A stretch of DNA of 42,957 nt from a virus (lineage: Duplodnaviria > Caudoviricetes), in IMG/VR virus record IMGVR_UViG_3300033076_000603, positions 1 to 42,957 of that record; one strand, 5' to 3'. The notes beneath the pieces were generated by a model. It was not told the origin of the DNA. It did no database searches and saw only the letters and a program-made list of their open reading frames with translations. A program made the position numbers and the translations under genes. The first letter of the stretch is position 1; each line of letters opens with the position of its first letter. Below are positions 6,144 to 33,237 of the stretch, piece by piece.

Positions 6144-6171
6144 TTAGACCCGAGACTGTTACTTTAGTTCC
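6144..6171 (-). promoter_or_regulatory. sigmaE/ECF-type promoter P1 (GGAACT-N16-GTCTAA)
   Basis: Minus strand GGAACTaaagtaacagtctcggGTCTAA; intergenic; points into the SLT/tail/lysis genes. Confidence 0.85.
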
Positions 6172-6179
6172 ATTTATTT

Positions 6180-9100
6180 TCAAGGTAATGCTTGCATAGC
6201 CTCGTTGCGTTTGCGCTTGATCGCCTCGGCCTTGCGTAGACGTTCGGCCTTTAATGCAGGGGACGCTTCCTCCAAGCGGTCGCGTTCCTTGCGCTTGGCT
6301 TGGACTAGCTCCGCCCACTTCCGCGCCTCGTTGCCGCCGAACTCCCGGTCGTACAGTGGCCGGCCTACGCCAGGAATGTACTTAATCAACCGCTCTGGTT
6401 TGTCTAGATCGCTGAGCATACTCAAGCTTGGCGGTGTAACAGCTCCCACGGCGAATTCTTTAATCCCCTTGGCTAGCGTTTCTCTGTTAATCTTCCCCAT
6501 CGTATAGTGATTGATGCCAAAGTTCTGCAACAGATTCTCCACGTAGTCAATCTTATCTAAATTAACTGGCCGGTTAGAGAGCATATCTTTAACAATATCT
6601 CCCGGAATATTAGCAAGAGACATTGCAGCTGCCAGCCCAACCAGATTCCGAGCACCCTTAACATAGTTACCTTTTGCAATCTCTTGATACGCATCACGCC
6701 GAACTACATCAATCTGCTTTAGCATATACGTTTTCATCTGATACAAGATCCGCCCATTTGGACGGTCAAGATATGCTTGTGGTACTTCTAGTTTTGTGAT
6801 TGGTTGAGCATTTGACAACTCGCTGAAGAGTAAACTTTTAACTGGCTCACTCATCCGCTTCGCCGCAAGATCTGCCAGCAACTGCGGAAACTCCGCGCCA
6901 AAGGCTTCTCCCCAACGCTCTGCAAGTACCGCCTGCCCTTTCGCCGTTTGCGCTAACTTTTGATTCTTAATCAATCCAGCTTGCAAATTCAACCCTTTAG
7001 CAAACTGATCAATGGCGGAAAATCCAGTGTACTTAAACAAAGTCTGTAACGCCTTACCAGTAATACGTGTACTGCCCATTTCCTCTGCAATGTGATTAAC
7101 GAGTCCGAATTCTTTTGGCGTGATCTGGGAGGATCCTGTCAGCTTCATTCGCAGCGCGCCAAGCGTAGGCATTAAACCGTGGTGATACGCAGTCATTAGT
7201 GAATCGCCAATCTGCGTAGCTGCGGAAGCAAAGTTACCTAGCAATCCTATGTTAGTTGCATTTCGTACATCTTGCAGAAATCCGCCCATCTGCTGCTCGC
7301 CTTGCTTAAAGCGAGACTCAAGTATGCTTTTAATTGCAAGTTGCTGGTCAGCCGAAAGCGCTCCGGACTTCATCTCACTCTGGATAAGATTACCAATCGA
7401 GTCATCTACGTGCGTAGCCATTTGCCCGTTTGCTAGTTTCTTAGACGCAAGATCTTTACCGAAGAACTTAGCTACTTCCGCATCTTCAACCGCACCTACG
7501 ATATATCGCAACAAAGATTCCGTAGGCGTCATGTAAAATTGCGCTAGGTCTGCCGTAACATCCACCCCACGCGCCTTAGCAAACCCAGGCAAGCTTGCAT
7601 TAGGAGCAGAAGCTAGCAGCGAGCGATTAACAACAAGTGAACGCTCAACATCGGTTAGCCCTCTCCCGCGCGCTTTAATCATATCCGCTTCAGCTTTCGC
7701 CAAAGAATTTTCCAGCTGCGTGCGCATCGGCAAGCTTAACGCTTCCTTAAGCCCTTCTAGGTCTTTAACCACCCGCGGAAAGTAATCGTTAACTCCGGCG
7801 GCAAAGCGGCCTAAACCGATCTGCTCCGCCCGGAATGCTTCAAGAAGATTTTGCACCTGCCGATACCCGGCTACCAGTACAGGATTGCCTTTAATTGCCG
7901 CTGCAATTTCGCCCGGGTCATTTCGCAGTAACGCTAGATTTAACGCATCAGCTGCTGCTGTGGGTAGTTTTTTAATCCCCTTGATAAAAGGTGTAACTGC
8001 GTCCAGTGCTTTATCTGTCCGTTCCATTACAAATCGCTCGTAGTCTCTTGCGCGCCGCAGCAACGGCTGGGATATACCGCCTAGATTAGTTGAGACTAAC
8101 CCTAGCGTATACTCAAGACCTTTTCCCGGCTTACCCTTCGCCATAGCCCCAAACCCGGCTACGCCAATAGCCCCTAGCACTCCACCGCGGATAGGATTGT
8201 CAGAGTCCAGATACGTCCCCAGAGCCACCCCGCTGCCTAACGCACCCAGAGCAATTACCGCATCTGTATCAATCTTTCCCCCTTGGGTACGGTACTGCCG
8301 CAGGCTCTGCCCCAGCGCATCCTTTGCCCGGCTGACGCGGGAACGCACAGTTCCAATAGGAATACCAAAGCGATCCGCGGCCTCCTGATACGACAGGCCT
8401 TCCATCTCTATAGCTTCAAACAACGCTCGAGAGTCTTCTGGCAGTTTATCCAGTGCCTTTTGCATTTGCTGAGCAAGCTGGTTATTAGCTGTCACATCTT
8501 CTGCGCTTTGGTAGCGTTCAGGATTCTGCTCCATCATGTACTTTTCAGGAACAGCTGTCGTGCCTTCCGCGTCTACGGTCATGGAGTCAGTAGCTGGTCG
8601 GCGGCTAGCGGCGGCAAAGGAGTTCTTAACCTCATTCGACGCAACTCCGTGGAGAAATGTAGACAGCTTAGCTTCTCCGCGAAAACCGCCTGGATCATCG
8701 GGGGATTGCTTCAGCGCCTTAAACACCTTCTCGTAAACCCGCTGACTAATATCCTGGATGCCTGCCTCATCCAGCTGCCGGTTCATGTTGCCGATTGTCC
8801 GGCCTAGCTGCCTGTTCGTATTCTCCCAGATTTGCGCAGCTGCGGCCTCCCCTTCCCGGCCACCCGCGCGGAAGGTTTCAATTAACTTCCCTTCGGGTAG
8901 GTCGGCAAACTTACCCCCGCGCGAGGCAATGACTCCAGCGCCCAGGGCAGTTGCTAGGGTAGCTAGTTTGTCGGGGTCAGGATCACTGGCAAGGTAGGCT
9001 GCCGCGGCTGCTCCGCCGGCGATTAGGGCGAGTTGCTCGGGCTTGGCGGAGCCTTGCTGTTTTGTGGCGTCCCAAGTATATTTTGGATCAATCTCACCTC

Positions 9101-12100
9101 CAGCTTTTGCGTACGCGTCAGCTAACTCAGCTCTGGAATAATAGCCAGGCTCTAAAGTTATGGCTTGGTAATCAACTGTGCCAGGCTTGTAAATGTAAGG
9201 GTCTCTACCCCCCATGACAGTTTTATAAGGTAGTAACCCAGCATTATCCAGATCTTTAACATCTGACCATTTGCCTGACTTAACAAAGTCCTGTACGTAA
9301 GGTTGAACGTAGTCAGCGGGGGCGCCGTTGCCGGGGCCTTTGATCTGCTCAATAAACTTTTTAGGAATTCCACCTGGTAAAGCATACTGAGAACCCAACT
9401 CCACCGTAGCATAGCTTCGCCCAAGCTGATCGCGCAAGGTAATAATCCGAGATTCCCCTGCCAGCACATTGTCACAGTATCCACCCACGCAGTGGCCTAA
9501 CGCATTACCTTCCTGCGCCAGCTGCCCTGCAAGATGAGCTTCTTCTGGAGTACGCCCGACCGCTGGTTGCTTGCTGAAATTATCTATTATTACTTTGCCT
9601 CTAGCATCCACCGCCTTGTAACGCATATCAGGCGGAACTCTTCCAATAGCCGTATTCGTCCCCCAGCTGTCAAGAGGAAGAATCCTGCTTGCCTGCGCAG
9701 GCGTCAGCGCATCAGGCAACTTTAGCTCATGCCAAGTATACTGAACTTCCCCTGCCGGCAAGTTAATAGAGTCCATCTGCCTAATCGAGCCGTCTTTGTT
9801 AAAAGAAAACTTACGCGCCGGGGCCATTTCGCTAGGATAACTTTTCCCTTCATACACCGGCAACGCTTGCGTGTCAGCAATACGTATGAGATTCGGCTTG
9901 GTAAAGTCCTTCAACGCTTGCGCTGCGATACGCGCATCGTTAGCAGAGGTTTCTAGCATCGCACGAGGCAAGTCATATTGCTGTAACTTTTCCGGTGTAA
10001 GATTTAATGACCTCATGTAATCGCCAACGTGACTTAGATACTCATTCAGCAGCTCCCGAGACTCACCAATTCTGTCGCCTTGGTGTCCCACCTGAACATC
10101 CGAGATCCGATTAGCTACCTGGTAAATTCGTGTGTCTGCACCCACTTTACCTTCTTCAATAAGCTTGGTAAGTCCGGGTATATCCCTACTTGGCAGTGAT
10201 CCCATTCCTGTAGCTGGCCGACTCCCAAACGCCTGGTCTGTAAGGGATTCTATAGTCTCACCCGTTGGAAGGGTAATATCTTTTGCCCTGTCTGTTGCAG
10301 TGCCAGCTTCTTTATTAAGCCACTTTGTTACTACGTTAGTTGACCAGCTATTCATAGTTAAAGCATTTTTTAGTACCGCACTTTCCACAAGATTAAGTAA
10401 ATCTGGAGCTGTACCCCCATGCATCTGTATAACACGGCTATCCGAGCGGCCTAGAAGCGACTTAGCCAGCGTCGGCACTGCAGACGGATGCCACATACCT
10501 CCTTTAGGTTTCATAACCCCCGCAGCGCCAGCGGCAGCCAGTCCCATGCCAACATCGCGCGCTTTATCCTCCGATAATCCGCTTGGACTATTCCACCAGT
10601 CATAAATTTGATTCGCTGCTACCGCGCTTAGACCCATGAGCCCCAACACCTTGAGCAAGGACGGATCAGACACCCCGCGCTGTGACAGTGGTTTACCGTC
10701 CGGGCCTAAGATAACCCCGTTCGCCACATCCACGCGAAGCGCCTTTGCAGCCTTCGTTGTTTTGACTGCTGCCAGCCCTTCCGCCACGGCTGCTTTGTTA
10801 GCTTCCAGTGCGCGCGCAAGCATAGCCGGAGTTTGAAAACCGGGGTCAAACAGCGCCGGGGTTTGCGAAGCACCCTCTTCCGGAAGTGCCCGGTCAACCA
10901 TCCAGGCTTCTCGAGGAATTACTCCTGGGGGCTCGACTCGGCGAACTGGTTGCAGCACCCGATCAAAAATATTCTGCACCAACGCTGCCTCAGCCGCCGG
11001 GCCTTTTCTAGCCGCAAGGCCAAAGATCTCCTGCAGCTTAGTCTTATCCACTACCAGCGAATCCACCGCTGCAGTTTGCGCTTTAAGTTCCGCTTTCGTC
11101 GGGGCAGCCGGCAATGCTTCTGTAAGATCCACTGGGGTCTCTGGTGTAAGCGCAGCAATCCTAGCCTTCGACGCAGCTACAGCTTCGGCTGCCGCCGCCA
11201 CTGCGTCCGTTCCCATTGCAGATGCTTCGCGAAAATCTTGCCGCACACCTTCTAGTGCCCCGCGAACTCGCGCGCCCATGCCGGGGGCAGGCGCAACAGG
11301 AGCTGGAGCTAGTTCAGGAGCAAGTGCCCCTTCCAGCGTAGGCTCGACACCCCCTGGTACTACTGGCGCCTTGGGCTCAAGCGCTCCGCGCAACTGCGCT
11401 GTGCGAGCTTTAGCAGAACTTACTACGCCTTTCTTAGCCGCAGCAACCCCTAGCAAGCCCATTGTGGCATCAGCCAGATTCATGATATCCCCAACTGGAA
11501 TGCCACTTGCAGCTCCAGCACCTCCTGCCGCCGCTTCAATTCCTTTGCCAATATAGTGCATTGCAAAAGCAACTGGATTGTTTTCATAGAAGTACTGAGC
11601 CTCTGGCCCCATTGACTTGGCTACTACGCTCCAAGGCGCGTTAAGTTGCTGCGGCCATTTGTCCTTGAGTGCCTGCGCGTTCTTAACGCTGTCTGCTCGA
11701 GGTACCTTCGTAAACAGCTCATCATAAAGCCGGGCGTAATTATAAACCGCACTACCCAGCACACTCTTAGGAATGCTGCTGAACATATCGGAGATTTGCC
11801 CACCTGTACCTAGCGTCATTCCCTCTACATATTTTCGGGGATTTGCCATGAACGTAGGAGGTGCCGGCGGAGCATTAGCAATATCCTTCATTACCTGTGC
11901 GCGAGTGTCTGCTTGATTCGTCTGCGAAAACATTATAGAGCCGGGGCTTACACTCTTATCCCTGTAGTACCTATTAGCTGCTGCATCCGTGTCAAAAGTT
12001 GGCGGCGGTACTTTAGGTGAGTCTCGCAGGACGCTACGAAAAGGCTGTGTTATGCCCCGCAGATCAGCACCGACTTGCCCTGCCAGTGCGCGGCCTTGCT

Positions 12101-12275
12101 CAAGCGCTCCAGCAAACATCGAAGGAGCTGCTGACATACCTGTAGCTTCACGCTCGTCAATAAAGTTACCAACTTTCGTGGGCGCTGCGGGAACTTCGGC
12201 AGGGGGCGCTGCGGTCGGGGCTGCCGGTGTACTCGTAACAGAACGAAAAGCTTCAGCTTCAGTAATGAATGCCAT
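6180..12275 (-). CDS. giant internal virion / DNA-ejection polyvalent protein (2031 aa) with PcfJ-like and ECF sigma domains
   Basis: Lies after the gp10-like hub and three smaller internal proteins; Ala-rich helical; embedded domains listed separately. Confidence 0.8.
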   Translation of the reverse strand: MAFITEAEAFRSVTSTPAAPTAAPPAEVPAAPTKVGNFIDEREATGMSAAPSMFAGALEQGRALAGQVGADLRGITQPFRSVLRDSPKVPPPTFDTDAAANRYYRDKSVSPGSIMFSQTNQADTRAQVMKDIANAPPAPPTFMANPRKYVEGMTLGTGGQISDMFSSIPKSVLGSAVYNYARLYDELFTKVPRADSVKNAQALKDKWPQQLNAPWSVVAKSMGPEAQYFYENNPVAFAMHYIGKGIEAAAGGAGAASGIPVGDIMNLADATMGLLGVAAAKKGVVSSAKARTAQLRGALEPKAPVVPGGVEPTLEGALAPELAPAPVAPAPGMGARVRGALEGVRQDFREASAMGTDAVAAAAEAVAASKARIAALTPETPVDLTEALPAAPTKAELKAQTAAVDSLVVDKTKLQEIFGLAARKGPAAEAALVQNIFDRVLQPVRRVEPPGVIPREAWMVDRALPEEGASQTPALFDPGFQTPAMLARALEANKAAVAEGLAAVKTTKAAKALRVDVANGVILGPDGKPLSQRGVSDPSLLKVLGLMGLSAVAANQIYDWWNSPSGLSEDKARDVGMGLAAAGAAGVMKPKGGMWHPSAVPTLAKSLLGRSDSRVIQMHGGTAPDLLNLVESAVLKNALTMNSWSTNVVTKWLNKEAGTATDRAKDITLPTGETIESLTDQAFGSRPATGMGSLPSRDIPGLTKLIEEGKVGADTRIYQVANRISDVQVGHQGDRIGESRELLNEYLSHVGDYMRSLNLTPEKLQQYDLPRAMLETSANDARIAAQALKDFTKPNLIRIADTQALPVYEGKSYPSEMAPARKFSFNKDGSIRQMDSINLPAGEVQYTWHELKLPDALTPAQASRILPLDSWGTNTAIGRVPPDMRYKAVDARGKVIIDNFSKQPAVGRTPEEAHLAGQLAQEGNALGHCVGGYCDNVLAGESRIITLRDQLGRSYATVELGSQYALPGGIPKKFIEQIKGPGNGAPADYVQPYVQDFVKSGKWSDVKDLDNAGLLPYKTVMGGRDPYIYKPGTVDYQAITLEPGYYSRAELADAYAKAGGEIDPKYTWDATKQQGSAKPEQLALIAGGAAAAAYLASDPDPDKLATLATALGAGVIASRGGKFADLPEGKLIETFRAGGREGEAAAAQIWENTNRQLGRTIGNMNRQLDEAGIQDISQRVYEKVFKALKQSPDDPGGFRGEAKLSTFLHGVASNEVKNSFAAASRRPATDSMTVDAEGTTAVPEKYMMEQNPERYQSAEDVTANNQLAQQMQKALDKLPEDSRALFEAIEMEGLSYQEAADRFGIPIGTVRSRVSRAKDALGQSLRQYRTQGGKIDTDAVIALGALGSGVALGTYLDSDNPIRGGVLGAIGVAGFGAMAKGKPGKGLEYTLGLVSTNLGGISQPLLRRARDYERFVMERTDKALDAVTPFIKGIKKLPTAAADALNLALLRNDPGEIAAAIKGNPVLVAGYRQVQNLLEAFRAEQIGLGRFAAGVNDYFPRVVKDLEGLKEALSLPMRTQLENSLAKAEADMIKARGRGLTDVERSLVVNRSLLASAPNASLPGFAKARGVDVTADLAQFYMTPTESLLRYIVGAVEDAEVAKFFGKDLASKKLANGQMATHVDDSIGNLIQSEMKSGALSADQQLAIKSILESRFKQGEQQMGGFLQDVRNATNIGLLGNFASAATQIGDSLMTAYHHGLMPTLGALRMKLTGSSQITPKEFGLVNHIAEEMGSTRITGKALQTLFKYTGFSAIDQFAKGLNLQAGLIKNQKLAQTAKGQAVLAERWGEAFGAEFPQLLADLAAKRMSEPVKSLLFSELSNAQPITKLEVPQAYLDRPNGRILYQMKTYMLKQIDVVRRDAYQEIAKGNYVKGARNLVGLAAAMSLANIPGDIVKDMLSNRPVNLDKIDYVENLLQNFGINHYTMGKINRETLAKGIKEFAVGAVTPPSLSMLSDLDKPERLIKYIPGVGRPLYDREFGGNEARKWAELVQAKRKERDRLEEASPALKAERLRKAEAIKRKRNEAMQALP
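8292..8903 (-). other. RpoE-like ECF sigma factor domain (aa ~1125-1328 of the 2031-aa protein)
   Basis: Region 2: IQDISQRVYEKVFKAL...FRGEAKLSTFLHGVASNEVKN. Region 4: LDKLPEDSRALFEAIEMEGLSYQEAADRFGIPIGTVRSRVSRAKDAL. Confidence 0.92.
9318..9533 (-). other. PcfJ-like domain (aa ~915-986 of the 2031-aa protein)
   Basis: LAQEGNALGHCVGGY...IITLRD...ATVEL...IEQIKGPGN matches the EG..M.HCV..Y / Q..G..N pattern. Confidence 0.75.
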
Positions 12276-12276
12276 A

Positions 12277-13320
12277 TCAATCTCCTAATACATTAAGACC
12301 AGGTTTCTTAGTAGTCGGATCAACTTCCCATCGAGCTGTCCGGCCATCCGGCAACATATACGATTGGCCAAGTTTTCGGCTGCCCGGATCAAGTGGTAAC
12401 TGTGGAGTAGCTTTTTCCTGCGCCGCCGCTGTGCGAGCGCGAGCCGCGTCCGCAACTGCTTTCTTAGCCTCTAGTCCTGCATCTGTAACGGCCTGTCCAT
12501 TTTTAGCCAACAGCTCAAAGCGCGTAGTCGCAAGTAAAAATTGAGCATCAGCCGCTGCAACTTTTGCTTCCCGTTGCGCCTCCCCAGCTCTAAAGTTAGC
12601 TTGCCGCGCATCAAGCTCCGCTTGCTGGCGCCTGTTGTCCGCTTGCTTATTTGCATCCATGCTAGCTTGCCCGATTGCGCGCAGCGTATTACGATCTGCG
12701 TCGTAACTACCTGTAAGTTCTGGCGGCAAGCGCTTTCGCAGATCCTGATTCATCATGATCGCTGCATATTGTTGGGGACTTTCTGCCGCGGCCGCAGCAA
12801 TGCCTCCTATTTCAGTGCGCTGCTCGCGCGACACTTTATCTTGTGAGGCTATAACTTCTTGATTTCTCCAAGCTCCTTGCGCCTCTTTCTCTTCTATCGT
12901 AGCGATCTCTCCGTAAAGCTTTTCAAGTACTGTTGGAGGAGCACCCTTGCCAGCAGCATACGCAGCAAAATCTTTTAGTGGCTGCGCGGTAGAAACTTTT
13001 TGCCCAGCGCCTTTTAAGTCAGCTACTGTTGCTGTTTTACCTTGTGCAGCAGCTCCGTCTATAACACCTTTAAGTTTTTGCTGATCCGCAGTAAACCCTT
13101 CGCCAAGCCGCTGCATTACTCGTGCCGCTTCAACCTTTGCGTCTGCCTCGGCTGTCTGTGCTCCATAGTACCCTGTATGCGCTTGATTAAGAGCAATCTG
13201 GGAAGGCTGCAAGGCCAGGGTATTCATAACCTTTTGTGCTTCCAGCCCGACTAGTGCATTCTGCCGACTTTGCTCGTCGGCGGCTATCATCCCCAGAGGG
13301 GCGCCGAATAGTTCAGCCAT
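12277..13320 (-). CDS. internal virion (ejection) protein
   Basis: ATG 13320 coupled to the upstream stop; Ala/Gln-rich helical; immediately precedes the giant protein. Confidence 0.65.
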   Translation of the reverse strand: MAELFGAPLGMIAADEQSRQNALVGLEAQKVMNTLALQPSQIALNQAHTGYYGAQTAEADAKVEAARVMQRLGEGFTADQQKLKGVIDGAAAQGKTATVADLKGAGQKVSTAQPLKDFAAYAAGKGAPPTVLEKLYGEIATIEEKEAQGAWRNQEVIASQDKVSREQRTEIGGIAAAAAESPQQYAAIMMNQDLRKRLPPELTGSYDADRNTLRAIGQASMDANKQADNRRQQAELDARQANFRAGEAQREAKVAAADAQFLLATTRFELLAKNGQAVTDAGLEAKKAVADAARARTAAAQEKATPQLPLDPGSRKLGQSYMLPDGRTARWEVDPTTKKPGLNVLGD

Positions 13321-14198: not shown

Positions 14199-14208
14199 AA
14201 AATATCCT

Positions 14209-15108: not shown

Positions 15109-15116
15109 AGTCAGTC

Positions 15117-17851: not shown

Positions 17852-17857
17852 GGCAGC

Positions 17858-18394: not shown

Positions 18395-18432
18395 AAATTC
18401 TCCTAACGGGGGTGATTAGCCCCCGAGTAAAG

Positions 18433-20640: not shown

Positions 20641-20652
20641 AATATATCTCCT

Positions 20653-21261: not shown

Positions 21262-21276
21262 GAAAATCTCCGTAGG

Positions 21277-21792: not shown

Positions 21793-21794
21793 TT

Positions 21795-25284: not shown

Positions 25285-26757
25285 TTAATATCCTGTTACT
25301 GCAGAACGGCCGTCAGCACCAGAACTTGGCCGGCTCCAAAAACCTTTTTCCATTTCCCACTCGTCTTCGGTGAAGAAATCTTCAGGTTCTACATGAGTAA
25401 GATCGTCGAAGCCGCGACTAAGCAAAGCAGCTGCATCAAATTGATCGTCAAGGGTTGCCTGGGCAGTGCCGGTAAAGCGTAAGTTTTCCTGCTCAAAGTC
25501 CGCGTACCATTCTGCGCGCTTGTTAAAGCGACACTGGCCAGCTCGCATACGACGCTGGTAAGAGCGGCCACGCGTTCCTTTGTCTTTGACGGGCAGGATA
25601 GCTTCGAAGTTTATGCGTAGATCCCGCACTTGCATTTCGCGGTAAATCATGGACTTGACAGACTTCCAGATCACGCCATCCTCAACCCAAAAAACTTCCG
25701 GATTGTACTGTCGCTGAATATCAAACATTTCTTCAATCCATTCAGTCGGATCCCAGCGGCCCTTCCGAACATCAATGAAGTGCAAGATGTTATTAACATC
25801 CTTTCCGCCGATTACAAAAGCAGTACGGTTAGCTTTGTCCGCGCGAGATACTGCAAAATCGGCAGCCACGCAGATAATCTTATCCGTTTCATAGTCATCA
25901 CTTGACATATGCTTGAAATCGGCTTGTTTAAGAAATGCGTCGGAGTGATCAAGCGGGTTGTTTAAGAACTCTTGTGAGTAACCCGCAGAATCACCGTCTT
26001 CAATAAATTCTTGCCGACGCGCGCGAAGGTGCGCTTCAGTCCAACGCTCGGGCCAAAGCATTCCAGAGAAATCGTCAAAGCTTGCATGGGCAGAGTAAAA
26101 TAAATGCTGCCAAGTGCGGTTTTTGCGCAGGCGGGAAAGTAAAGAGTCGTCGTGCAAAATTGTACCGTGTACGCGGATCTTGCCGGATTTACTCAAAGCT
26201 TGCTTGGCGGCGCGAAAAAACCAAATACGAAACTTGCGGCGACGATCAGCATTTTCTACCTGTTCGTCATCTTCCATGTCATCGCAGACAAGAAGGTTAG
26301 GGCGTTTACCTTTCCACAAGCGGCCGCGGATACGTTGCTCAGCGCCGCGAGCTAAGATGCGGAACTTGTGCCCGTCAGTCATTTCTACAATAACGTCAGT
26401 CGTGGCGGTACGGTGAAACTTTTTAATTCCAAACTCACGAATCAAGTCTTCGTTTTCGGACAGTTCTTCCGTGATGTTACCAAGTTGCTCAGCCGCGCCG
26501 TCTTCTGTAGAACCTACCAAGATCACGTAATCGCTGGAACGAAAAAGAACTTCCGCCAGAATATAAACCATGGAAAGCGCGCTGGACTTTGCGTGATCTC
26601 GCGGAGCAATGACCATTGCGGAAGGTGCGTCAGACGTGTACAGCTTCCACGCTTCCCGGTGAAAGAAAGGCGTAGGGCATAACTGATCATACTTTGGCGA
26701 GATAAACGTCCCGCCAAAGGATTCAATTAAGTCTGCACTAAGCTGTACCTTGCTCAC
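25285..26757 (-). CDS. terL: terminase large subunit
   Basis: APRDHAKS (Walker A variant), LLVCDDMED (Walker B), YSQEFLN, nuclease motifs ADFA and DDQFDA. Confidence 0.92.
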   Translation of the reverse strand: MSKVQLSADLIESFGGTFISPKYDQLCPTPFFHREAWKLYTSDAPSAMVIAPRDHAKSSALSMVYILAEVLFRSSDYVILVGSTEDGAAEQLGNITEELSENEDLIREFGIKKFHRTATTDVIVEMTDGHKFRILARGAEQRIRGRLWKGKRPNLLVCDDMEDDEQVENADRRRKFRIWFFRAAKQALSKSGKIRVHGTILHDDSLLSRLRKNRTWQHLFYSAHASFDDFSGMLWPERWTEAHLRARRQEFIEDGDSAGYSQEFLNNPLDHSDAFLKQADFKHMSSDDYETDKIICVAADFAVSRADKANRTAFVIGGKDVNNILHFIDVRKGRWDPTEWIEEMFDIQRQYNPEVFWVEDGVIWKSVKSMIYREMQVRDLRINFEAILPVKDKGTRGRSYQRRMRAGQCRFNKRAEWYADFEQENLRFTGTAQATLDDQFDAAALLSRGFDDLTHVEPEDFFTEDEWEMEKGFWSRPSSGADGRSAVTGY

Positions 26758-27068
26758 GTTCCGGTAGCCTTTACAGTTAAGTATCCGTCAAGCACAAAAG
26801 TTTTGCTGGCGCTGGTTGTAATAACACAAGTAAGAATGTAGGTTACGCCAACCACCCCGCCTGTTATAGTCTGTGTTACTTGGGCGCCGCTGCTCGTCGC
26901 GCCACCGCTAATAATCGAGCTGGGGGACGCGTCCGTCCCAGAATAGACAGTTGCTGTAACGCTCGCGCTTGAGATGGTTTCACCAACGGCAAGGTACTGG
27001 GCGAAGTCAAAGACCGCGTAGAAGTTAGTGCTGGAGATTTTCGCATTAAAGATGCTCCGGTAACTCAT
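26754..27068 (-). CDS. phage fibre-tail adaptor-like protein
   Basis: FDFAQYLAVGETISS...TGGVVGVTYILTCVITTS pattern. Confidence 0.6.
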   Translation of the reverse strand: MSYRSIFNAKISSTNFYAVFDFAQYLAVGETISSASVTATVYSGTDASPSSIISGGATSSGAQVTQTITGGVVGVTYILTCVITTSASKTFVLDGYLTVKATGT

Positions 27069-27340
27069 AAAGTGAAACCTCCGGCACTTCCCAACATGGG
27101 TGTTAAAAGCGCAAGCGCAAACACTATGGCAGAAGGCCAGAAGTAATTAAAAGACACGCGCGCCGGCAAGGGTTTTTTGGGGGAAGAGGAGGCACCACTT
27201 TCTCGGGGGAGGTGGTTTCCAGGGCAAAAAAACAGCCGGCTTAACAGGGATAGCGCGCCGGCAAGGAAACAGCCTTTCTGGGGAAGGCCAAACAGCCGGG
27301 GACAAACAGCCAAACAGCCAACAGCCGGGGACAGGGTCAT
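27065..27340 (-). CDS. questionable ORF over a repeat-rich tract
   Basis: ATGA overlaps at both ends support it, but the protein is atypical and the DNA carries out-of-frame repeats. Confidence 0.3.
   Translation of the reverse strand: MTLSPAVGCLAVCPRLFGLPQKGCFLAGALSLLSRLFFCPGNHLPRESGASSSPKKPLPARVSFNYFWPSAIVFALALLTPMLGSAGGFTL
27231..27326 (+). repeat. six copies of AACAGCC
   Basis: Copies start at 27231, 27268, 27291, 27305, 27313 and 27320. Confidence 0.8.
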
Positions 27341-27630
27341 TTCTTGTTCCTCGCGGAAATGGCGGCAGCCTTGGCTTTAGCGTCGGCCTTGCTAGAAGCG
27401 CCCCAGGCCTGGAGAGACAGGAGCAAGCGGGTCGGCTTACCGTCCTTGCGTTCGGGGCCTGGCATGCTGCCCATGCGAGCAAGAAAGGAAGCGCGGCGCG
27501 GGTTGTCGCCGGACTTGACAGGCGCCTTGAGCGTCCCGCCAGTCTCGGCGTGGTACGATGCTCTGCCGGCGGCATTGAGCCCGCCCTTCGGGTTCTTGCC
27601 AGCCTTGGTTTGCCAGGCGGGAGATTTCAT
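27337..27630 (-). CDS. small basic protein (DUF6321-like)
   Basis: GKNPKGGLNAAGRASY...RRASFLARM...SLQAW. Confidence 0.75.
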   Translation of the reverse strand: MKSPAWQTKAGKNPKGGLNAAGRASYHAETGGTLKAPVKSGDNPRRASFLARMGSMPGPERKDGKPTRLLLSLQAWGASSKADAKAKAAAISARNKK

Positions 27631-27773
27631 TTCTTCTTTGCCGTTTTAGCGGAGTCTTTAAAATCTTTAGCCGTCGGCGCGCCCGGAGCACCAGGCTTCT
27701 TCATGCGTTCGCCGGAGCCGGCTTTGATGCGAGCTTTCTTCGCATTGATGTTAGCGTAGAGGCCCGGTTTCAT
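27627..27773 (-). CDS. small basic protein (48 aa, MKPGLYANINAKK...)
   Basis: Hand-read ORF with ATGA overlaps on both sides; widespread phage family. Confidence 0.75.
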   Translation of the reverse strand: MKPGLYANINAKKARIKAGSGERMKKPGAPGAPTAKDFKDSAKTAKKK

Positions 27774-27934
27774 TTCTTAGCCTTCATGTGCGTTGCGGTA
27801 CGCTGGCCACGCTTTGGCAACCCGGCAGTACGCATGGCCATTGCTACGGCCTGCTTTTGTGGCCGACCTGATTTCATCTCCGTGCGAATGTTCGCGGAGA
27901 TTGTCTTTTTCGAGGAACCTTTGGCGAGTGGCAT
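27770..27934 (-). CDS. small basic protein (54 aa, MPLAKGSSKKTISANI...)
   Basis: Hand-read ORF; GRPQKQAVAMA motif; ATGA overlap. Confidence 0.75.
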   Translation of the reverse strand: MPLAKGSSKKTISANIRTEMKSGRPQKQAVAMAMRTAGLPKRGQRTATHMKAKK

Positions 27935-27940
27935 GGCGGC

Positions 27941-28162
27941 TTAACACCCACCCGCAAGGGTAAAGTGCATCCTCACTGGTACAGCGTCGGTAGGGGCGAA
28001 CTGGTTCTGCTGGGCCGCCGACCGCAGGGGCACCAGGTTGCGATCCACAAACTTCCCATGTTCATCACTACCCATAGGCCAGGTAACCGTACGAAGGGTT
28101 GGAGTCTTACCGACTTTACAGACCGCCGGCTTGCCGCCGAATGTACACTTAGGACTAGACAT
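27941..28162 (-). CDS. hypothetical protein
   Basis: 73-aa ORF with AAGGAG RBS in the late operon. Confidence 0.55.
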   Translation of the reverse strand: MSSPKCTFGGKPAVCKVGKTPTLRTVTWPMGSDEHGKFVDRNLVPLRSAAQQNQFAPTDAVPVRMHFTLAGGC

Positions 28163-28640
28163 TTATCACTTCTCCTTGACTATGCGTCACGCGGACGCGG
28201 GATTGCAGTTCAATCAACCTATTCGCAAGCTGGGCTAGGTGATCCTGGCCGGGCGGGGCCGCCGGAGCATTACCCCCTACCCCCATTGCCTTCGCCCCTA
28301 GCTCCACCGCCTTCAACACCACGTTATCCGAGACGGCCGGGGCCTCAAGCTTTTGCTTCAACCGCTCCAGCGACAACAGCGTGATTCCGCGAAACCGCTC
28401 TTCCACTGTCGCCACTAGCACCGGGTCACAAATCTCCGCGCGGCGGGCGGCCATGGCACTCTGCCAAGCATCCGAGGCCATCACGTTACTCACCCACCCC
28501 ACTGAGTACCCGTACCGCGACGCCAGATGATTCTGGGTAATCCCGGGATTCGCTATGATATAATCAATCATATCCTTATGCGAGTACCCTACCTTTGCCA
28601 CGTTTCCCATCGTCGGGGCAGTTTCCCTTAGCTCATTCAT
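28155..28640 (-). CDS. putative terminase small subunit (HTH)
   Basis: NPGITQNHLASRYGYSVGWVSNVM helix-turn-helix; first gene of the late operon upstream of TerL; AAGGAG RBS. Confidence 0.6.
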   Translation of the reverse strand: MNELRETAPTMGNVAKVGYSHKDMIDYIIANPGITQNHLASRYGYSVGWVSNVMASDAWQSAMAARRAEICDPVLVATVEERFRGITLLSLERLKQKLEAPAVSDNVVLKAVELGAKAMGVGGNAPAAPPGQDHLAQLANRLIELQSRVRVTHSQGEVINV

Positions 28641-28700
28641 CGTATCTCTCCTTCGCGGGGGTCGGCGGCAATCACCACTAACATCTATCCCTCACCCCTG

Positions 28701-28728
28701 TTAGACCACTAACTCTCCTCGAAGTTCC
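28701..28728 (-). promoter_or_regulatory. sigmaE/ECF-type promoter P2 (late operon)
   Basis: Minus strand GGAACTtcgaggagagttagtgGTCTAA, 60 nt upstream of the terS-like start; A/T tract upstream (28738-28762). Confidence 0.85.
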
Positions 28729-28777
28729 GCCGGGCTGAAAAGTAAAAAAATTTTAGAAAAAAGGGAGGGGCCTCTTC

Positions 28778-28805
28778 GCGTGGATTATGAAAGGATATTT
28801 CGCGC
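28778..28805. promoter_or_regulatory. 28-bp palindromic site B
   Basis: GCGTGGATTA-tgaaagga-TATTTCGCGC. Confidence 0.6.
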
Positions 28806-29094
28806 GATCTTTCACAGCACCTAAACTATCCCAGATTGCATTTGTGTTTTGCGCGCGAATCTTTTTTTGCCCCCCACCCGGTCAATGGCAGGCAGATCGC
28901 TCGATGGACTGTGGCGCCAGCGCAACTGTGGCGCCGAAGCAACGGAGAGAAGGCTGTTGTTTTCATACCACTGTCCGATGGCAGGCTGGCGGGATTGTTG
29001 CAGTGCACCATTGTATACAGTGTACAATTATACAGACGGCATTGTGATGGCAGCTCTGTGGTAAAAATACAACGCAAGATATCTGAAAATAATT

Positions 29095-29122
29095 GGAACC
29101 AATTGCGAAACCAGCTGTCTGA
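29095..29122 (+). promoter_or_regulatory. sigmaE/ECF-type promoter P3 (variant GGAACC-N16-GTCTGA)
   Basis: Same spacing as the other copies with two substitutions; 44 nt upstream of ORF 29167. Confidence 0.75.
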
Positions 29123-29166
29123 TACCTACCGATACACGATATCGGCATTTTACCAAACGGGGCTCT

Positions 29167-29550
29167 ATGAAAAAAGTTATTAATACCGGCGCACAGGCAG
29201 TTACTTTTACATTTGACGGGCTGGCACCAGTCACCCTGTCGATGCACGAAGTTACCCCAGCCAATGCCACCTACGCCATGCTACATGGCTTTGCGGCCAG
29301 AATTGGCGACAATGCGGCGATTCAGAGGTCTGTAGAGAATGGCTTTAATGTTACCGAAGCCATGCGGCGCGAGGCGGTGCTAGAATTAGTGCAGCACTAC
29401 ACAAGTGGCAGTGTCGAGTGGAATACCAAAGTGGCCGAGCGTAAAGCACCACAGAATCCTACAATTCTGGCTATTGCAGCCAAGATGGGCTTAACGTATA
29501 CGGAGGCAGAGGCCGAGATCCAGCGCCGGATGCTCGCTGAGCTGGCGTAA
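29167..29550 (+). CDS. early hypothetical protein (HG...GD family; paralog of 32180..32806)
   Basis: First gene after P3; AMLHGFAARIGDNAA motif. Confidence 0.75.
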   Translation: MKKVINTGAQAVTFTFDGLAPVTLSMHEVTPANATYAMLHGFAARIGDNAAIQRSVENGFNVTEAMRREAVLELVQHYTSGSVEWNTKVAERKAPQNPTILAIAAKMGLTYTEAEAEIQRRMLAELA

Positions 29551-29612
29551 GTACCAGCCAAGGCCTGTTATGAGCAGGCCTTACCGGGTATTTTCCCGAA
29601 TAGGAGATCAAA

Positions 29613-29819
29613 GTGTTTAAAGTGTATAAAGTAAGAATGCAGTCTAAGTCCGGCAGCGAGTTATTCGCTGCTGCCAGTGGTCACGCAAGTGACTGGGTGC
29701 ATGAAAATGCCCCAGAACCCGAGGCGGTGCTAGAAACCCGGGATGCCGCGCTTGCGCTGGCCGCGCTCGTTGAGGCTACGGGCTACGCAAAGCCACAGGT
29801 AATAGAACTGACGTTATAA
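29613..29819 (+). CDS. small hypothetical protein
   Basis: GTG start with TAGGAG RBS. Confidence 0.6.
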   Translation: MFKVYKVRMQSKSGSELFAAASGHASDWVHENAPEPEAVLETRDAALALAALVEATGYAKPQVIELTL

Positions 29820-29832
29820 GGCGTCTCCAGAA

Positions 29833-29864
29833 TTCCCAGCCTCCTGTAAAAAGGGGGCTGGGAA
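29833..29864 (+). terminator. GC-rich hairpin after ORF 29613 (possible terminator)
   Basis: TTCCCAGCCTCCT...GGGGGCTGGGAA; no clear U-tract. Confidence 0.45.
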
Positions 29865-29869
29865 AACTC

Positions 29870-29897
29870 GCTTGGGTTATGGGAACATAATCCGCGC
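29870..29897. promoter_or_regulatory. 28-bp palindromic site C
   Basis: GCTTGGGTTA-tgggaaca-TAATCCGCGC. Confidence 0.6.
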
Positions 29898-29912
29898 GGG
29901 TTTCTTTCTCTG

Positions 29913-30106
29913 TCTATTTGTCTTCTTCCGTCTATGTTTTCTATCTGTCAATGGTACATTAAAAGGACAGGGTAGGGTAAGGTTAGGGTATATTGTATAC
30001 AATATTTTTTTTATGTCTCATATATACCACTGTTGCTTTTAAACCACGAAGCCCTTTATAACCCCATGTGACAGATAGACAGCATAGGAGGAAGAAGATA
30101 GATAGG
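29913..30106. repeat. ~43-bp imperfect inverted repeat enclosing a G-tract and a perfect 16-bp palindrome (origin-like)
   Basis: 29913-29954 pairs with 30064-30106; ATATTGTATACAATAT at 29990-30005. Confidence 0.7.
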
Positions 30107-30142
30107 TGATGGATAGATGAATGATAGACGGTGGATTACTGT

Positions 30143-30170
30143 GGAACTTTATCACCAGTCCACGGTCTAA
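30143..30170 (+). promoter_or_regulatory. sigmaE/ECF-type promoter P4
   Basis: actgtGGAACTttatcaccagtccacgGTCTAA upstream of HTH gene 30225. Confidence 0.85.
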
Positions 30171-30224
30171 TGGAGGTGAGGTGGACTGGCTGCCTTGCTT
30201 GATTGACTGGATAAAGGAGTAGAG

Positions 30225-30614
30225 ATGAAAAGAGTTATGACGCAGTTTACTGCTGGGGAGGTTAGGCGGATGCGAGCGGAGGTGAATGAATGGGGAGAAC
30301 CCAAGTGGACTGGGGTGGAGATCGCAGTCGCGCTAGGCGTGAGTGAGTCGACTATCTGGCGCGTGCTTAATAAGCAAGCGGCTTATGAGAAGATGGGCCG
30401 CGTGGAACCGGGAGGGTTGACGATGGAGGCGGCAGCAGCTGCAGCGGCGAATTCTCCGGGAGCGGGACTGGAGAAGAAAGTTGCGGCAAGCTTGGCGCGG
30501 TTGCAAGGGATGCTCGGAGGAGCAGGGGAGCGCGCTTCGCCGCCGAAGCAGTCCTTCATGTCTCCCGAGGCGCAGGCGCGGTATGAACTTATGAGGAGTC
30601 CACTTGATGAGTAA
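30225..30614 (+). CDS. helix-turn-helix DNA-binding protein
   Basis: WTGVEIAVALGVSESTIWRVLNKQ; AAGGAG RBS. Confidence 0.75.
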   Translation: MKRVMTQFTAGEVRRMRAEVNEWGEPKWTGVEIAVALGVSESTIWRVLNKQAAYEKMGRVEPGGLTMEAAAAAAANSPGAGLEKKVAASLARLQGMLGGAGERASPPKQSFMSPEAQARYELMRSPLDE

Positions 30615-30960
30615 GCTTAACGGAACGGATAGCGAGCATGAAGGGCTGGAAGATCTGCCCAAGGCGCTTCGTGGCCCAGCGAAGACGCATGGGAGGCGGA
30701 TGGTTGCGCTGGTTTATGGAGCGGGGATGTGCTCGGAGGCCACGGCGACGCTGGCGCGGAAAGCGCAGGCGAGGCAGGACGGAGAAGCCATGGATGCGCT
30801 GCGGGTGCTTAGTCAGACATTCAACCAGATCAGCACCGCGTACTGTAAGGAGCAAGGCTGGACGGAGGCGGAGCTGGCAATGTGTGATAGGGATATTATG
30901 GTCAGCTTCGCCGGGGAGGTTCTGCAGGGACAGTCCGGGCGGATAATCCTGTCCCAATAA
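30607..30960 (+). CDS. hypothetical protein
   Basis: ORF with GAGGAG RBS overlapping the previous stop. Confidence 0.65.
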   Translation: MSKLNGTDSEHEGLEDLPKALRGPAKTHGRRMVALVYGAGMCSEATATLARKAQARQDGEAMDALRVLSQTFNQISTAYCKEQGWTEAELAMCDRDIMVSFAGEVLQGQSGRIILSQ

Positions 30961-30964
30961 CTGT

Positions 30965-30992
30965 GGAACTTCGACGGACAGTTCCTGTCTAA
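30965..30992 (+). promoter_or_regulatory. sigmaE/ECF-type promoter P5
   Basis: actgtGGAACTtcgacggacagttcctGTCTAA immediately after the stop at 30960. Confidence 0.85.
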
Positions 30993-31049
30993 TGTGTATC
31001 GGCGAATGATCTGCCGCCGACTTTGCAGATCAACTTAAAAAGGCTCATC

Positions 31050-31358
31050 ATGGACTTTATCAATATCGGAAGTACTCCGACAGAGGAAGACTGCTTCGGC
31101 GTGGGAAACCCTCTCGCGCAACAGGAGTGCAAACTCTTCATGGCGCAGCTCGAGCGGGAGTTCCCGGCGGGTTTCTTCGCAGTCAAAGGATTCCCGCATG
31201 ACTTCGGGTACTACTACGAAGTCGTAGCGTACCTCTCCGAAAACGAAGCTGATGAGGATCAGAACCAGGCAGCTTACGACGCGGAAGACCACGCAAACCC
31301 GCTCTGGGACGAGATCTCCGCTCCCCTCGTCGCAGCTCTGCGCAGCAAGGCCGCTTGA
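31050..31358 (+). CDS. acidic hypothetical protein
   Basis: ATG 31050; IGSTPTEEDC...FPHDFGYYYEV motif. Confidence 0.7.
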   Translation: MDFINIGSTPTEEDCFGVGNPLAQQECKLFMAQLEREFPAGFFAVKGFPHDFGYYYEVVAYLSENEADEDQNQAAYDAEDHANPLWDEISAPLVAALRSKAA

Positions 31359-31570
31359 TGGAAGACTACCATCTCCCGATCTGCATGAGCTGCTATGCAG
31401 TAAGAGTCGAGCCGCCGAGAGCAAAGGGACTTCGGCCTACCTGCATGGCTTGCGGAGAGAAGGCAGCTCGTAAAGTCCAGCATACGATTGCTCCGATCAA
31501 CAAGAGCAATTATATGCTGATCAGCAACCTTGAGGAGCTCAAGCAACTCAACCCGAAAAGGACAGCGTGA
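31358..31570 (+). CDS. small C4 zinc-finger protein (DksA/TraR-like spacing)
   Basis: CMSC-x16-CMAC with a central Arg. Confidence 0.6.
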   Translation: MEDYHLPICMSCYAVRVEPPRAKGLRPTCMACGEKAARKVQHTIAPINKSNYMLISNLEELKQLNPKRTA

Positions 31571-31746
31571 TGAGTCTTTCCCCCAAGCAAGAGCAAACCT
31601 GGGCTAGGAAAGTCCTGGCTGCGTACTCTTCCCACATCGCAGCGTACCGGAAACTCTGGTCAGGAATCCCTCCCGACCGGACAGCTCACCTTAACGCCTG
31701 GGCAGCAGCGCGCAAGGAATTCCCGCGTGAGCAGGAACGTGGTTAG
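31570..31746 (+). CDS. small hypothetical protein (58 aa)
   Basis: Hand-read ORF MSLSPKQEQTWARKVL...; start overlaps the previous stop. Confidence 0.55.
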   Translation: MSLSPKQEQTWARKVLAAYSSHIAAYRKLWSGIPPDRTAHLNAWAAARKEFPREQERG

Positions 31747-31771
31747 TGGTGAAAATACAACAAATTTCTTC

Positions 31772-31799
31772 GGAACTAATCCCGGAAGTCCGTGTCTAA
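31772..31799 (+). promoter_or_regulatory. sigmaE/ECF-type promoter P6
   Basis: GGAACTaatcccggaagtccgtGTCTAA; intergenic. Confidence 0.85.
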
Positions 31800-31844
31800 C
31801 ATATGTTGGCGCATAATGCACCAGCGATTACAGAAAGGCTCAAT

Positions 31845-32075
31845 ATGAAGATGGCTATGAAAAACAAGCTCGAGGCGATAGTGACAGTGCTCGAGCTGCA
31901 GATGGAACAGCTAGATACCCTGGTCGATGCCCAGCAAGAGTTTATTGACGACTGCCCAGACTCGCGGAGTGAGGAAAAGCAAGAGGAAGCAGACGCACTT
32001 CTCGAGTCTTTGACTGAAGCAAGGGACGTCTGCGAAGCCGCCCGAGACGCAACGCAAGCTTGCCTGGACGACTAG
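31845..32075 (+). CDS. small acidic helical protein
   Basis: ATG 31845 downstream of P6; Glu/Asp-rich. Confidence 0.7.
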   Translation: MKMAMKNKLEAIVTVLELQMEQLDTLVDAQQEFIDDCPDSRSEEKQEEADALLESLTEARDVCEAARDATQACLDD

Positions 32076-32179
32076 CCCCTACCGCAGAGGGGAGCGCGTC
32101 TCCCTTCTCCAGTAGGGGTTCCCTGCTACCGGAATCCGCAGTCGCCGGCTCAAAGGACTGTTGCAATCGGAGAGAGAAA

Positions 32180-32806
32180 ATGGCTACAGAAAGCAAGACA
32201 GAGTACAGTGAAATCACCATGACTGATGGGCGTAAGGTTAACTTCGCCGGCAAACGCAAGGTGAACAAAGAAACCTTGGTCGATGACAGCGGCATCGTTA
32301 TCGAAGACGGTGTTATGCAGATCACTGCGGGCGCTGTCAGCATTCGCATGGACTTCCGCAACGGAGAAACCCGGACAATCCCGCTGCCCCTGGCACTCCT
32401 CGCTCGCTTTGCCGGACACGGCGCAGAGCAAAAGTTCGGCGATGAACTCGCTACCTCGGCTGACAAGCCCCTCAGCGAAGACGACATGGTACTTGCCATC
32501 GACGACCTGAACTCCCTGATCCAGTCCGGCAAGTGGGGTGCTGGTCGCGCTGCCGCCGGCGGCGGTGTCTCAGGCGCTTCGGTAGTAGTCCAGGCAATCT
32601 GCGAGGCCACCGGCAAAGACGTTGCGACGGTCAAAGCCTACCTGCGGAAGAAACTCGATGCAGACTCGGCACTCACCCGCCGTGCCTTGTACGATTCCTT
32701 CCGCGTGGCTGGCACCAAGACTGGCGTTATCATCAAGCGCATGGAAGATGCCAAGCTCGCCAAGGTTGCCAAGGTTGACGCAGACGCTGAGCTGGCAATG
32801 TTCTAA
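32180..32806 (+). CDS. early hypothetical protein (HG...GD family)
   Basis: ATG 32180 with GGAGAG RBS; FAGHGAEQKFGDELA motif. Confidence 0.8.
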   Translation: MATESKTEYSEITMTDGRKVNFAGKRKVNKETLVDDSGIVIEDGVMQITAGAVSIRMDFRNGETRTIPLPLALLARFAGHGAEQKFGDELATSADKPLSEDDMVLAIDDLNSLIQSGKWGAGRAAAGGGVSGASVVVQAICEATGKDVATVKAYLRKKLDADSALTRRALYDSFRVAGTKTGVIIKRMEDAKLAKVAKVDADAELAMF

Positions 32807-32915
32807 CCCCAGCTGGTCTAGCAAACCCTTGTGGGCCTTCAGTGGCCCATAGGCACTAGGAAGGGTGGTCGCATCCTCCGACTCAGCATGATGACTTGAG
32901 CCTCGCTTGCTGGGG
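32807..32915 (+). ncRNA. candidate multi-stem structured RNA
   Basis: Closing helix CCCCAGC/GCTGGGG encloses hairpins GTGGGCC/GGCCCAT, AGGGTG/CATCCT and CTCAG/CTTGAG. Confidence 0.35.
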
Positions 32916-32920
32916 GCATC

Positions 32921-32960
32921 GGGAGGCGGGACTATAAAGCTCGCCTCCCCGGTGTTTTTT
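32921..32960 (+). terminator. intrinsic terminator
   Basis: GGGAGGCGGG-loop-CTCGCCTCCC followed by a T-run. Confidence 0.7.
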
Positions 32961-32986
32961 CAAAGGCTCTCTCCAAGGCTCAACCT

Positions 32987-33202
32987 ATGACAATTCAAGA
33001 ATTCCACCAGCTCTGCTCTCGGCATGACTGGCACTACCAGTTCAGCGATGACCATTCTGTCTGGAAGCGAAGCCAGGGAATCGCGGAGATCCTCAACAAA
33101 GCTGCCATCGCCGATCCCGCTTGCGCGCTGCTGCTCAAGTCCTGGCGGCTCTTCCGCAACGGCGAAGGCCCGCGTCCCGAGCTGGAAAAAGAACCCGCAT
33201 AA
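32987..33202 (+). CDS. small phage hypothetical protein (HDW.Y..SDD family)
   Basis: RHDWHYQFSDDHSVW motif. Confidence 0.7.
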   Translation: MTIQEFHQLCSRHDWHYQFSDDHSVWKRSQGIAEILNKAAIADPACALLLKSWRLFRNGEGPRPELEKEPA

Positions 33203-33206
33203 CTGT

Positions 33207-33234
33207 GGAACTAATAGTAAAAGTTCATGTCTAA
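33207..33234 (+). promoter_or_regulatory. sigmaE/ECF-type promoter P7 (replication operon)
   Basis: actgtGGAACTaatagtaaaagttcatGTCTAA immediately after the stop at 33202. Confidence 0.85.
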
Positions 33235-33237
33235 TTA

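Follow-up and report, generated by a model that had tools for sequence, protein, structure and literature searches.

To our knowledge, the lytic phages known so far begin transcription either through host sigma70 or with a whole RNA polymerase carried in the virion. The early promoters of T7 are read by host sigma70. Here we analysed the IMG/VR record IMGVR_UViG_3300033076_000603 (Duplodnaviria; Caudoviricetes) at its full length of 42,957 nucleotides (nt), called the window below. It is a whole virus record, 97% complete, and its 43 kb hold the gene set of a podophage, with terminase, portal, capsid, head closure, PolA-type polymerase and endolysin recognised in profile searches. Seven promoters of the sigmaE class occur in it together with an RpoE-like extracytoplasmic function (ECF) sigma domain, which lies inside a very large protein of the ejection type. 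The reading that we favour, with a probability of about 0.7, is that these promoters are read by the phage's own sigma, delivered from the virion within the ejection protein to recruit the host core polymerase.

The closest described systems are of several kinds. The ECF02 group, with E. coli RpoE and Pseudomonas AlgU (PMC1540707, PMC6648896, PMC1312014, PMC13492112), shares with the window a sigma made of sigma2 and sigma4 without sigma3, most of the DNA-reading residues and promoters of the form GGAACT-N16-GTCnAA; the window sigma differs in being a phage-encoded internal module between hairpins, with no adjacent rseA or rseB, in its score below the equivalog level and in the substitutions F175S, W73F and E52R. 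Phages phiEco32 and 7-11 are podophages whose own sigmas use the host core on well-conserved promoters of low copy number; there the sigma has a gene of its own, whose first transcripts come from sigma70 promoters, and it serves middle and late genes (PMC4331800), whereas the window sigma lies in a late structural gene and yet fits early promoters, where good sigma70 promoters are absent. N4 gp50 and gp66 of the crAss-like phage phi14:2 also place a transcription function for early genes in the third and largest ejection protein, and in the authors' model the N4 polymerase remains anchored in the membrane (PMC13434306); however, these are whole polymerases, while the window phage would bring a specificity subunit of 200 amino acids (aa) and borrow the host core.

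T7 gp16 is likewise the product of the third gene of an ejection cluster, and the window protein has a fold in common with internal virion proteins of T7-like phages. T7 gp16 has been described as a membrane-bound protein that at the same time recruits the polymerase of the host (PMC13434306), but no sigma domain has been described in it. By analogy, a hairpin-flanked sigma would fit between T7 gp16 and the N4 polymerase. Polyvalent proteins (Iyer et al. 2017, PMC5512222) are also large and modular, are encoded among virion genes and have swappable domains, among them the named LPD, MPTase and ART domains, and the ART-PolyVal domain PF18760 occurs in 3 of 120 listed homologues of the window protein; the modules of the latter, however, are delimited by a repeated QxG-hairpin, and the main text of that paper does not contain the word 'sigma'. 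According to the ECF reclassification (PMC7826278), phage ECFs were not captured in it, and a literature search with little coverage of subscription journals found no sigma fused to an ejection protein. The proposed injected-sigma system would join two known kinds, the free-standing phage sigmas and the ejected polymerases.

The seven promoters

The sites, in coordinate order, and the sequence that flanks some of them are as follows.

6144..6171, minus strand: exact motif; sigmaE-type promoter directly 3' of the ejection gene, heading SLT-like, tail-fibre and lysis genes
28701..28728, minus strand: exact motif; sigmaE-type promoter of the packaging, head, tail and ejection operon, sigma gene included
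29095..29122, plus strand: intergenic variant GGAACC-N16-GTCTGA (two mismatches); first early promoter, with an A/T-rich tract upstream
30143..30170, plus strand: exact motif; internal early promoter of the CT-flank class, before a helix-turn-helix (HTH) gene at 30225-30614
30965..30992, plus strand: exact motif; internal early promoter of the CT-flank class, ATG at 31050
31772..31799, plus strand: exact motif; internal early promoter of the CT-flank class, likely ATG at 31845
33207..33234, plus strand: exact motif; last early promoter, CT-flank class, nearest site 5' of the replication genes
30139-30142, 30961-30964, 31768-31771 and 33203-33206, plus strand: CT-flank positions, 5' of the -35 element

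The six exact copies of GGAACT-N16-GTCTAA reported in a preliminary description of this DNA were all recovered at the same places and on the same strands, compared with a mean of 0.01 and a maximum of 1 in 100 shuffles. A relaxed scan (up to 2 mismatches, spacers of 15-18) gave 6 sites with no mismatch, none with one and 14 with two; by coordinates, 13 of these 14 fall inside main open reading frames, and the only intergenic one is the variant at 29095, which the same description had listed. This seventh site was chosen after the fact, but it holds because 16 such sites precede the orthologous gene in 12 sigma-bearing genomes. The sites agree with the definition of a sigmaE-class promoter (GGAACT(T) and GTCnAA with a 16 nt spacer, lying between genes and reading in the direction of the gene that follows). 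All seven are oriented toward the adjoining gene, with an ATG provided with a ribosome-binding leader 45, 61, 45, 55, 58, 46 and 48 nt away, in agreement with the 45-60 nt first estimated. The position of promoter 6144 is common to G004, G008, G014 and the loci L169, L336 and L350. In a whole-genome dyad search the motif ranked first or close to first in roughly half of the 16 sigma-type records.

Five sites point rightward, to the early and replication arm, and two leftward, to the virion and lysis arm. The view that they serve early, replication, structural and lysis genes holds for the early and structural units, which they head. No site stands directly before the replication genes: from 33207, the closest, it is 1.6 kb to the exonuclease and 5.9 kb to the polymerase. 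The lysis genes lie 4 kb downstream of promoter 6144, so that both groups would need read-through. Sigma70-type sites between 27500 and 37800 are at chance level (5 against 4.2 expected).

An ACTGT extension stands 5' of three sites (30143, 30965 and 33207), as first noticed, and it generalises to a flank class: CT is found 4-3 nt before the -35 element in 36 of 46 internal early promoters and in none of the 32 that are first or late. The first promoters are flanked by A/T-rich sequence, and their -10 boxes are degenerate. Concerning the leaders, an end of roughly AAGGCTCA-N1-3-ATG was seen before 6099, 29167, 31050, 31845 and 33282, replacing a textbook Shine-Dalgarno sequence, and it occurs in relatives too.

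A sigma domain within an ejection-type protein

The protein that carries the sigma, and its parts, are encoded as follows.

6180..12275, minus strand: modular ejection-type (T7 gp16-like) protein of 2031 aa containing the sigma, by gene order and fold
10494..10691, minus strand: hairpin 1, a QxG with a Gly/Ala-rich two-helix hydrophobic segment, aa 529-594 (Kyte-Doolittle peak 1.58)
9393..9524, minus strand: PcfJ-like match in a further optional module, aa 918-961 (PF14284, E 8e-7)
8904..9068, minus strand: hairpin 2, immediately before the sigma, aa 1070-1124 (under the hydropathy threshold of 1.45)
8283..8900, minus strand: RpoE-like ECF sigma domain, sigma2 and sigma4, aa 1126-1331 (profile and structure-chain matches)
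8121..8294, minus strand: hairpin 3, immediately after the sigma, aa 1328-1385 (Kyte-Doolittle peak 1.71)
6183..8123, minus strand: conserved all-helical C-terminal domain with an internal-virion-protein fold (model pLDDT 86.9, BFVD matches)

The embedded RpoE-type sigma of the preliminary description is borne out by TIGR02937, which scores 72.4 bits against a cut-off of 42.9 and matches over profile positions 3-163 of 165, and the domain corresponds to the definition of ECF (group 4) factors, with sigma2 and sigma4 joined by a linker and no sigma3. The best-scoring family is RpoE (TIGR02939, E 5e-26), at 92 bits against an equivalog cut-off of 236; the best PDB chains are AlgU (6in7) and RpoE (1or7, 6jbq), and identity to RpoE proteins is 30-35%. 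The -35 readers of RpoE named in PMC1540707 are present as R171, S172 and R176 in the sequence GTVRSRVSRA. Among the -10 readers named in PMC6648896 (residue 84 also in PMC7776599), F64, N80 and N84 are retained and position 73 is Phe; the numbering was anchored on P0130 through the spacing stated in the papers. Across 101 phage domains, a set that was not dereplicated, these positions are conserved and others vary: F/Y64 and an aromatic residue at 73 in all 101, N80 in 93, T169 in 97, R/K171 in 93, S172 in 85 and R176 in 96. Position 175 is Ser in 67 and Phe in 8, and the expected F or H is absent from the window sigma. In a quick tree the phage sigmas are not nested within RpoE. Separately, three bacterial RpoE proteins (P0122, P0126 and P0132, one of them Brachymonas-labelled) share RAGGREGE with the window sigma, a weak lead to a possible sigma donor and host; for the host, Comamonadaceae is likewise no more than a weak lead.

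The module is internal to a large protein among virion genes, not free-standing beside rseA and rseB, and sigma and PcfJ are the only Pfam domains of this carrier; automatic annotations call some of its homologues sigma-70-like. An internal start before the sigma was considered and rejected, as the codon is a Leu CTA in the window and a start codon in only some of 32 other loci. A single-sequence model of the sigma with its hairpins reached a pLDDT of 44.9 and was not used.

The carrier is likely an ejection protein of the gp16 type, because three lines agree: the fold of the C-terminal domain, the SLT domain found at the N-terminus of the ejection protein in G017 and G026, and the gene order; its packaging we infer. 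The model of the C-terminal domain matches internal virion proteins of T7-like phages in BFVD, a set of predicted structures, with E from 1e-7 to 1e-4; BFVD entries named internal virion or core protein have TMq of about 0.4-0.5 and E from 4e-7 to 2e-4, and the BFVD rows also include LPD proteins. Among solved structures the top match is the PhiM1 ejectosome (8vb2), weak in both searches. The gene order is Hc3 (474 aa), 198, 299, 292, 362 and 2031 aa, the carrier being the largest, after tail closure and needle genes, with putative identities for the small genes of the cluster. The domain has no match among 50,697 phage records, and so no cultured relative among them; the nearest capsids are at 46-59%.

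A sigma is present in 80 of the 120 listed homologues of the carrier, in two different slots, in a listing whose query favoured sigma-bearing proteins. Of 97 proteins with the sigma, 84 have a hairpin whose end lies no more than 41 aa before it, and 89 have one that starts no more than 36 aa after it. More generally, the carrier's modules are bordered by a recurring [QE]xG motif with a Gly/Ala-rich two-helix segment; as [QE]xGxxDPxLL this hairpin occurs in 1-5 copies in 148 ejection proteins, at module borders, and it matches no PHROG family at E 0.001. The hairpin ends are basic on both sides and the loop is acidic. In class III (prepilin-type) cleavage, Gly stands at -1, Gln at -3, Phe at +1 and Glu at +5, with a hydrophobic helix following. 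The profile of 248 hairpins agrees at -3/-1 (G in 96%, Q in 71% or E in 16%, then a hydrophobic helix) and not at +1/+5 (+1 is K, S or A, and Glu is at +5 in 20 of 156), so that QxG would resemble a prepilin-type site in part, at -3/-1 only.

Which sigma reads the promoters

We counted sigma and promoters in 47 records, namely the window and 46 other records fetched whole; G037, G045, G046 and G048-G050 were searched only and stand outside this tally, with no sigma and 0-2 motif matches each. In the co-occurrence check proposed in the preliminary description, all 17 records with an RpoE-like sigma have the promoter pattern, in 1-8 copies, counting three partial contigs (1-3 copies), two near-copies of the window (G001 and G034) and G047, which was found via the motif. 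The pattern is in none of 4 records with diverged sigmas, in 4 of 17 related records without sigma (several sigma-less records are partial, and that of G041 is without the ejection gene) and in none of 6 distant records. G002, a record without the sigma region, has 6 matches, and G043 and G044 are unrelated to the window.

Sites in the relatives precede orthologous genes. At the promoter of the terS-like gene (28701), compared in 10 genomes, the hexamers are 1.00 and 0.91 identical, partly by construction, against 0.30 for the spacer and 0.3-0.4 for spacer plus flanks. Eleven relatives have neither sigma nor promoters, and 6 of them show a sigma70 match with 0-1 mismatch at the gene heads examined, while in 14 sigma-bearing genomes no match is better than 3 mismatches. 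Because the sigma70 matches stand at the same gene heads in relatives lacking both elements, these sequences indicate that one lineage swapped its sigma70 promoters for ECF promoters.

Beyond co-occurrence, covariation points to the phage sigma. With near-copies left out, C is at -13 in 11 of 12 sites of the Asp84 genomes (G004, G008 and G014, one of them with a single site, and sites within a genome not being independent) and in 3 of 62 sites of Asn84 genomes; a looser pattern gave 12 of 15 and 4 of 62. No comparable shift occurs at -14 to -16. The Asp84 genomes are not a single clade (p-AU 3e-51): the sigma of G014 groups with that of G004 and its core with Asn84 phages, which suggests, from these groupings, a module swap followed by retuning of promoters. 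Further loci have C at -13 with Asp (L336), and T and G with Asn (L169 and L350). According to PMC7776599, residue 84 determines bases -13/-12, Asp84 prefers CG (0.62) and avoids TG (0.02), Gln84 permits CA (0.32), and an acidic residue 56 accompanies -11A; no residue rule used here came from PMC6411747.

The diverged sigmas have their own dialects. G017 and G026 (Met or Gln at 84, R176 lost) have TGAACC-N16-ATC(C/A)AA in the early region, in 3 and 2 copies, and a slightly different pattern gave 2 each against 0.03 in simulated sequence; the whole-genome dyad search missed this motif, which was seen only with the search limited to early regions. G051c47 and G051c50 (Asp56, Asp84) have TTTGTC(AC/CA)-N16-CGACAT, with two copies apiece at corresponding positions and no occurrence in the remaining 45 records, a motif spotted by eye on 4 sites with no shuffle control. 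Its -11A agrees with the acidic-56 rule, and where the two sigmas differ, at 171 and 175, the promoters differ at the two bases read by these residues. Two diverged sigma types are paired with promoter dialects of their own, largely as the published ECF code would have it. Because promoter bases track its DNA-reading residues, both inside the clade and across three sigma types, the phage sigma is likely the reader of the seven promoters, and the cognate pair first proposed gains support.

Several points weigh against this reading. The promoter-bearing genomes form essentially one clade, and the co-occurrence therefore counts as about one event. Without any sigma, G013 (100% complete) and G039 (98%) retain 6 and 5 sites at the same places (4-6 across the several counts); two matches are found in each of G012 and G015 and three, in the tally, in the unrelated G043. 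The window sigma departs from RpoE at 175 (Ser), 73 (Phe) and 52 (Arg, in the core-binding region). The PDB fold matches of the carrier are weak (E 0.02; Z 6.8), and the Gly/Ala-rich hairpins, with two hydropathy peaks of 1.6-1.7 and one under 1.45, are marginal as membrane segments. Ser84 loci are discordant at -13 (C in G035, T in the L155 group). Asn84 likewise prefers CG (0.40) in PMC7776599, so that the code explains the Asp side only. The -35 T of G017 and G026 cannot be credited to the loss of R176, because TGAACC also opens the first promoter of G013 and of G039. To these are added the three genomes behind the Asp84 count and the small, uncontrolled sample of the G051 motif, described above. 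As a separate observation, Ser84 phages have an additional sigmaE-type site in the virion cluster, 5' of the ejection gene (L155:2176, L156:3849, L158:3695, L333:2901).

G013 and G039 need closer attention, as relatives lacking the insert but retaining the promoters were named in advance as pointing to host sigmaE. A six-frame search found no sigma in either at E up to 10, and the CT flank is present in 2 of 7 of their promoters. FastTree places G039 outside the sigma-bearing group (0.82), whereas IQ-TREE nests G013 and G039 beside G006 (99) and a clade excluding both is rejected (p-AU 0.014). G039 has an empty slot between two hairpins of the ejection protein, and G013 resembles an internal deletion. 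The simplest reading is that the sigma was lost secondarily, within a sigma-bearing group, and that host sigmaE took over. The motif is identical to the ECF02 consensus (PMC1312014, PMC13492112), and host sigmaE likely reads this promoter class too, because the two genomes keep the sites at the same places; the alternative of a host reader thus stands in part, but it does not explain the covariation. In G043, 3-4 sigmaE-type sites were seen (L305:18723-18880, L306:5255-5962), with no tested gene in common with the window, possibly an independent use of host sigmaE.

Three other explanations were weighed on this basis. In the first, host sigmaE would start the programme and the phage sigma, inactive from the virion, would only amplify it when newly made late. 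The whole promoter set retained by G013 and G039, the identity of the motif with the ECF02 consensus and the position of the sigma gene downstream of a sigma-type promoter all speak for it. We consider it unlikely, however: in the four diverged-sigma phages the matching promoters were seen at early genes alone, for which a sigma made late would be of no use, and the frequent fusion to the ejection protein would make little sense. The second makes host sigmaE the sole reader and the embedded domain a decoy for RseA that frees the host factor. It agrees with promoters that outlive the loss of the module and with a domain close to RpoE yet altered at E52 and F175, but it gives no cause for retaining DNA-reading residues or for covarying with promoter bases, and Asp84 is in none of 13 sampled bacterial RpoE proteins; we give it still less credit. 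Least credible is a module aimed mainly at switching on the envelope-stress regulon of the host (so as to seal the envelope again or keep other phages out) with the phage promoters as a by-product, which would suit an optional module whose consensus equals that of host sigmaE, so that an injected copy would fire host promoters, but which is at odds with phage sigmas drifting from host RpoE specificity jointly with phage promoters and with the replacement of sigma70 promoters at the main unit heads.

A possible course of infection and its meaning

An ECF sigma at time zero must come from the virion or from the host, because the sigma gene stands behind a promoter of its own class, with neither an internal start nor a good sigma70 promoter. 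The virion is favoured because the promoters that fit the diverged phage sigmas were seen at early genes only, and delivery in the virion is, on these comparisons, the likeliest start of the programme. The carrier would be packaged and ejected as T7 gp16 is, and its hairpins would insert in the inner membrane with the sigma facing the cytoplasm, an orientation suggested by their basic ends and acidic loop. The sigma, tethered or cut free at QxG sites, would bind the host core and with it fire the five early promoters before any phage protein is made, independently of sigma70 and of RseA degradation by the host. The two late promoters, including the one that drives the sigma gene itself, would be served by the same sigma, and late timing would be set otherwise, by upstream flank classes, early regulators or the order of DNA entry. 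Reading of the same promoters by host sigmaE would let some lineages lose the module.

More tentatively, a membrane-tethered sigma at the cytoplasmic mouth of the channel might capture core on the first promoters that come in, so that transcription pulls the genome in, one sigma might run the whole programme with entry order and flanks timing the late genes, and the QxG-hairpin might be a general cassette border with which phages exchange injected sigmas and adjust their promoters accordingly. Timing by entry order is conjectural: 4 of 20 capsid loci reaching the terS-like gene stop within 700 nt upstream of it and 16 continue, and no genome end was seen in contigs aligned over 24000-36000.

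Other features of the window and its relatives are the following.

5329..6099, minus strand: first gene after promoter 6144, a possible lytic transglycosylase (a lead only; Atlas 0.92, 125/256 features, SLT cluster), with no Pfam, PHROG or NCBIfam match
28155..28640, minus strand: first gene after promoter 28701, putatively small terminase-like by position only, with no family match
L267:4379, L287:3785, L408:1282 and L411:638: examples of a palindrome in the four diverged-sigma phages

Two small proteins (33996-34274 and 1186-1365) look ribbon-helix-helix-like by eye, neither with a family hit, and together with the HTH protein (30225-30614) they are candidates for temporal control. The palindrome, TGTTC(A/C)AAWTT(T/G)GAACA, is confined to G017, G026, G051c47 and G051c50, with 8-10 copies in each genome, usually in the interval from a stop codon to the following leader; it may be an operator or an RNA-processing hairpin, and may supply the late control absent from these phages. 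The window also encodes a PolA-family polymerase with an N-terminal uracil-DNA glycosylase domain (39073-41535) and a ParB-N domain fused to an N6/N4 methyltransferase (37700-39073).

If the favoured reading is true, an injected sigma of 200 aa would be a third and minimal route to starting transcription, and this route might operate regardless of the condition of sigma70 and of the host anti-sigma cascade. The case is unusually testable, with a close relative of RpoE and promoters defined to the single base. Natural variants whose promoters have changed to match are ready material for specificity swaps in E. coli, and the ECF recognition code gains three naturally occurring dialects of sigma and promoter.

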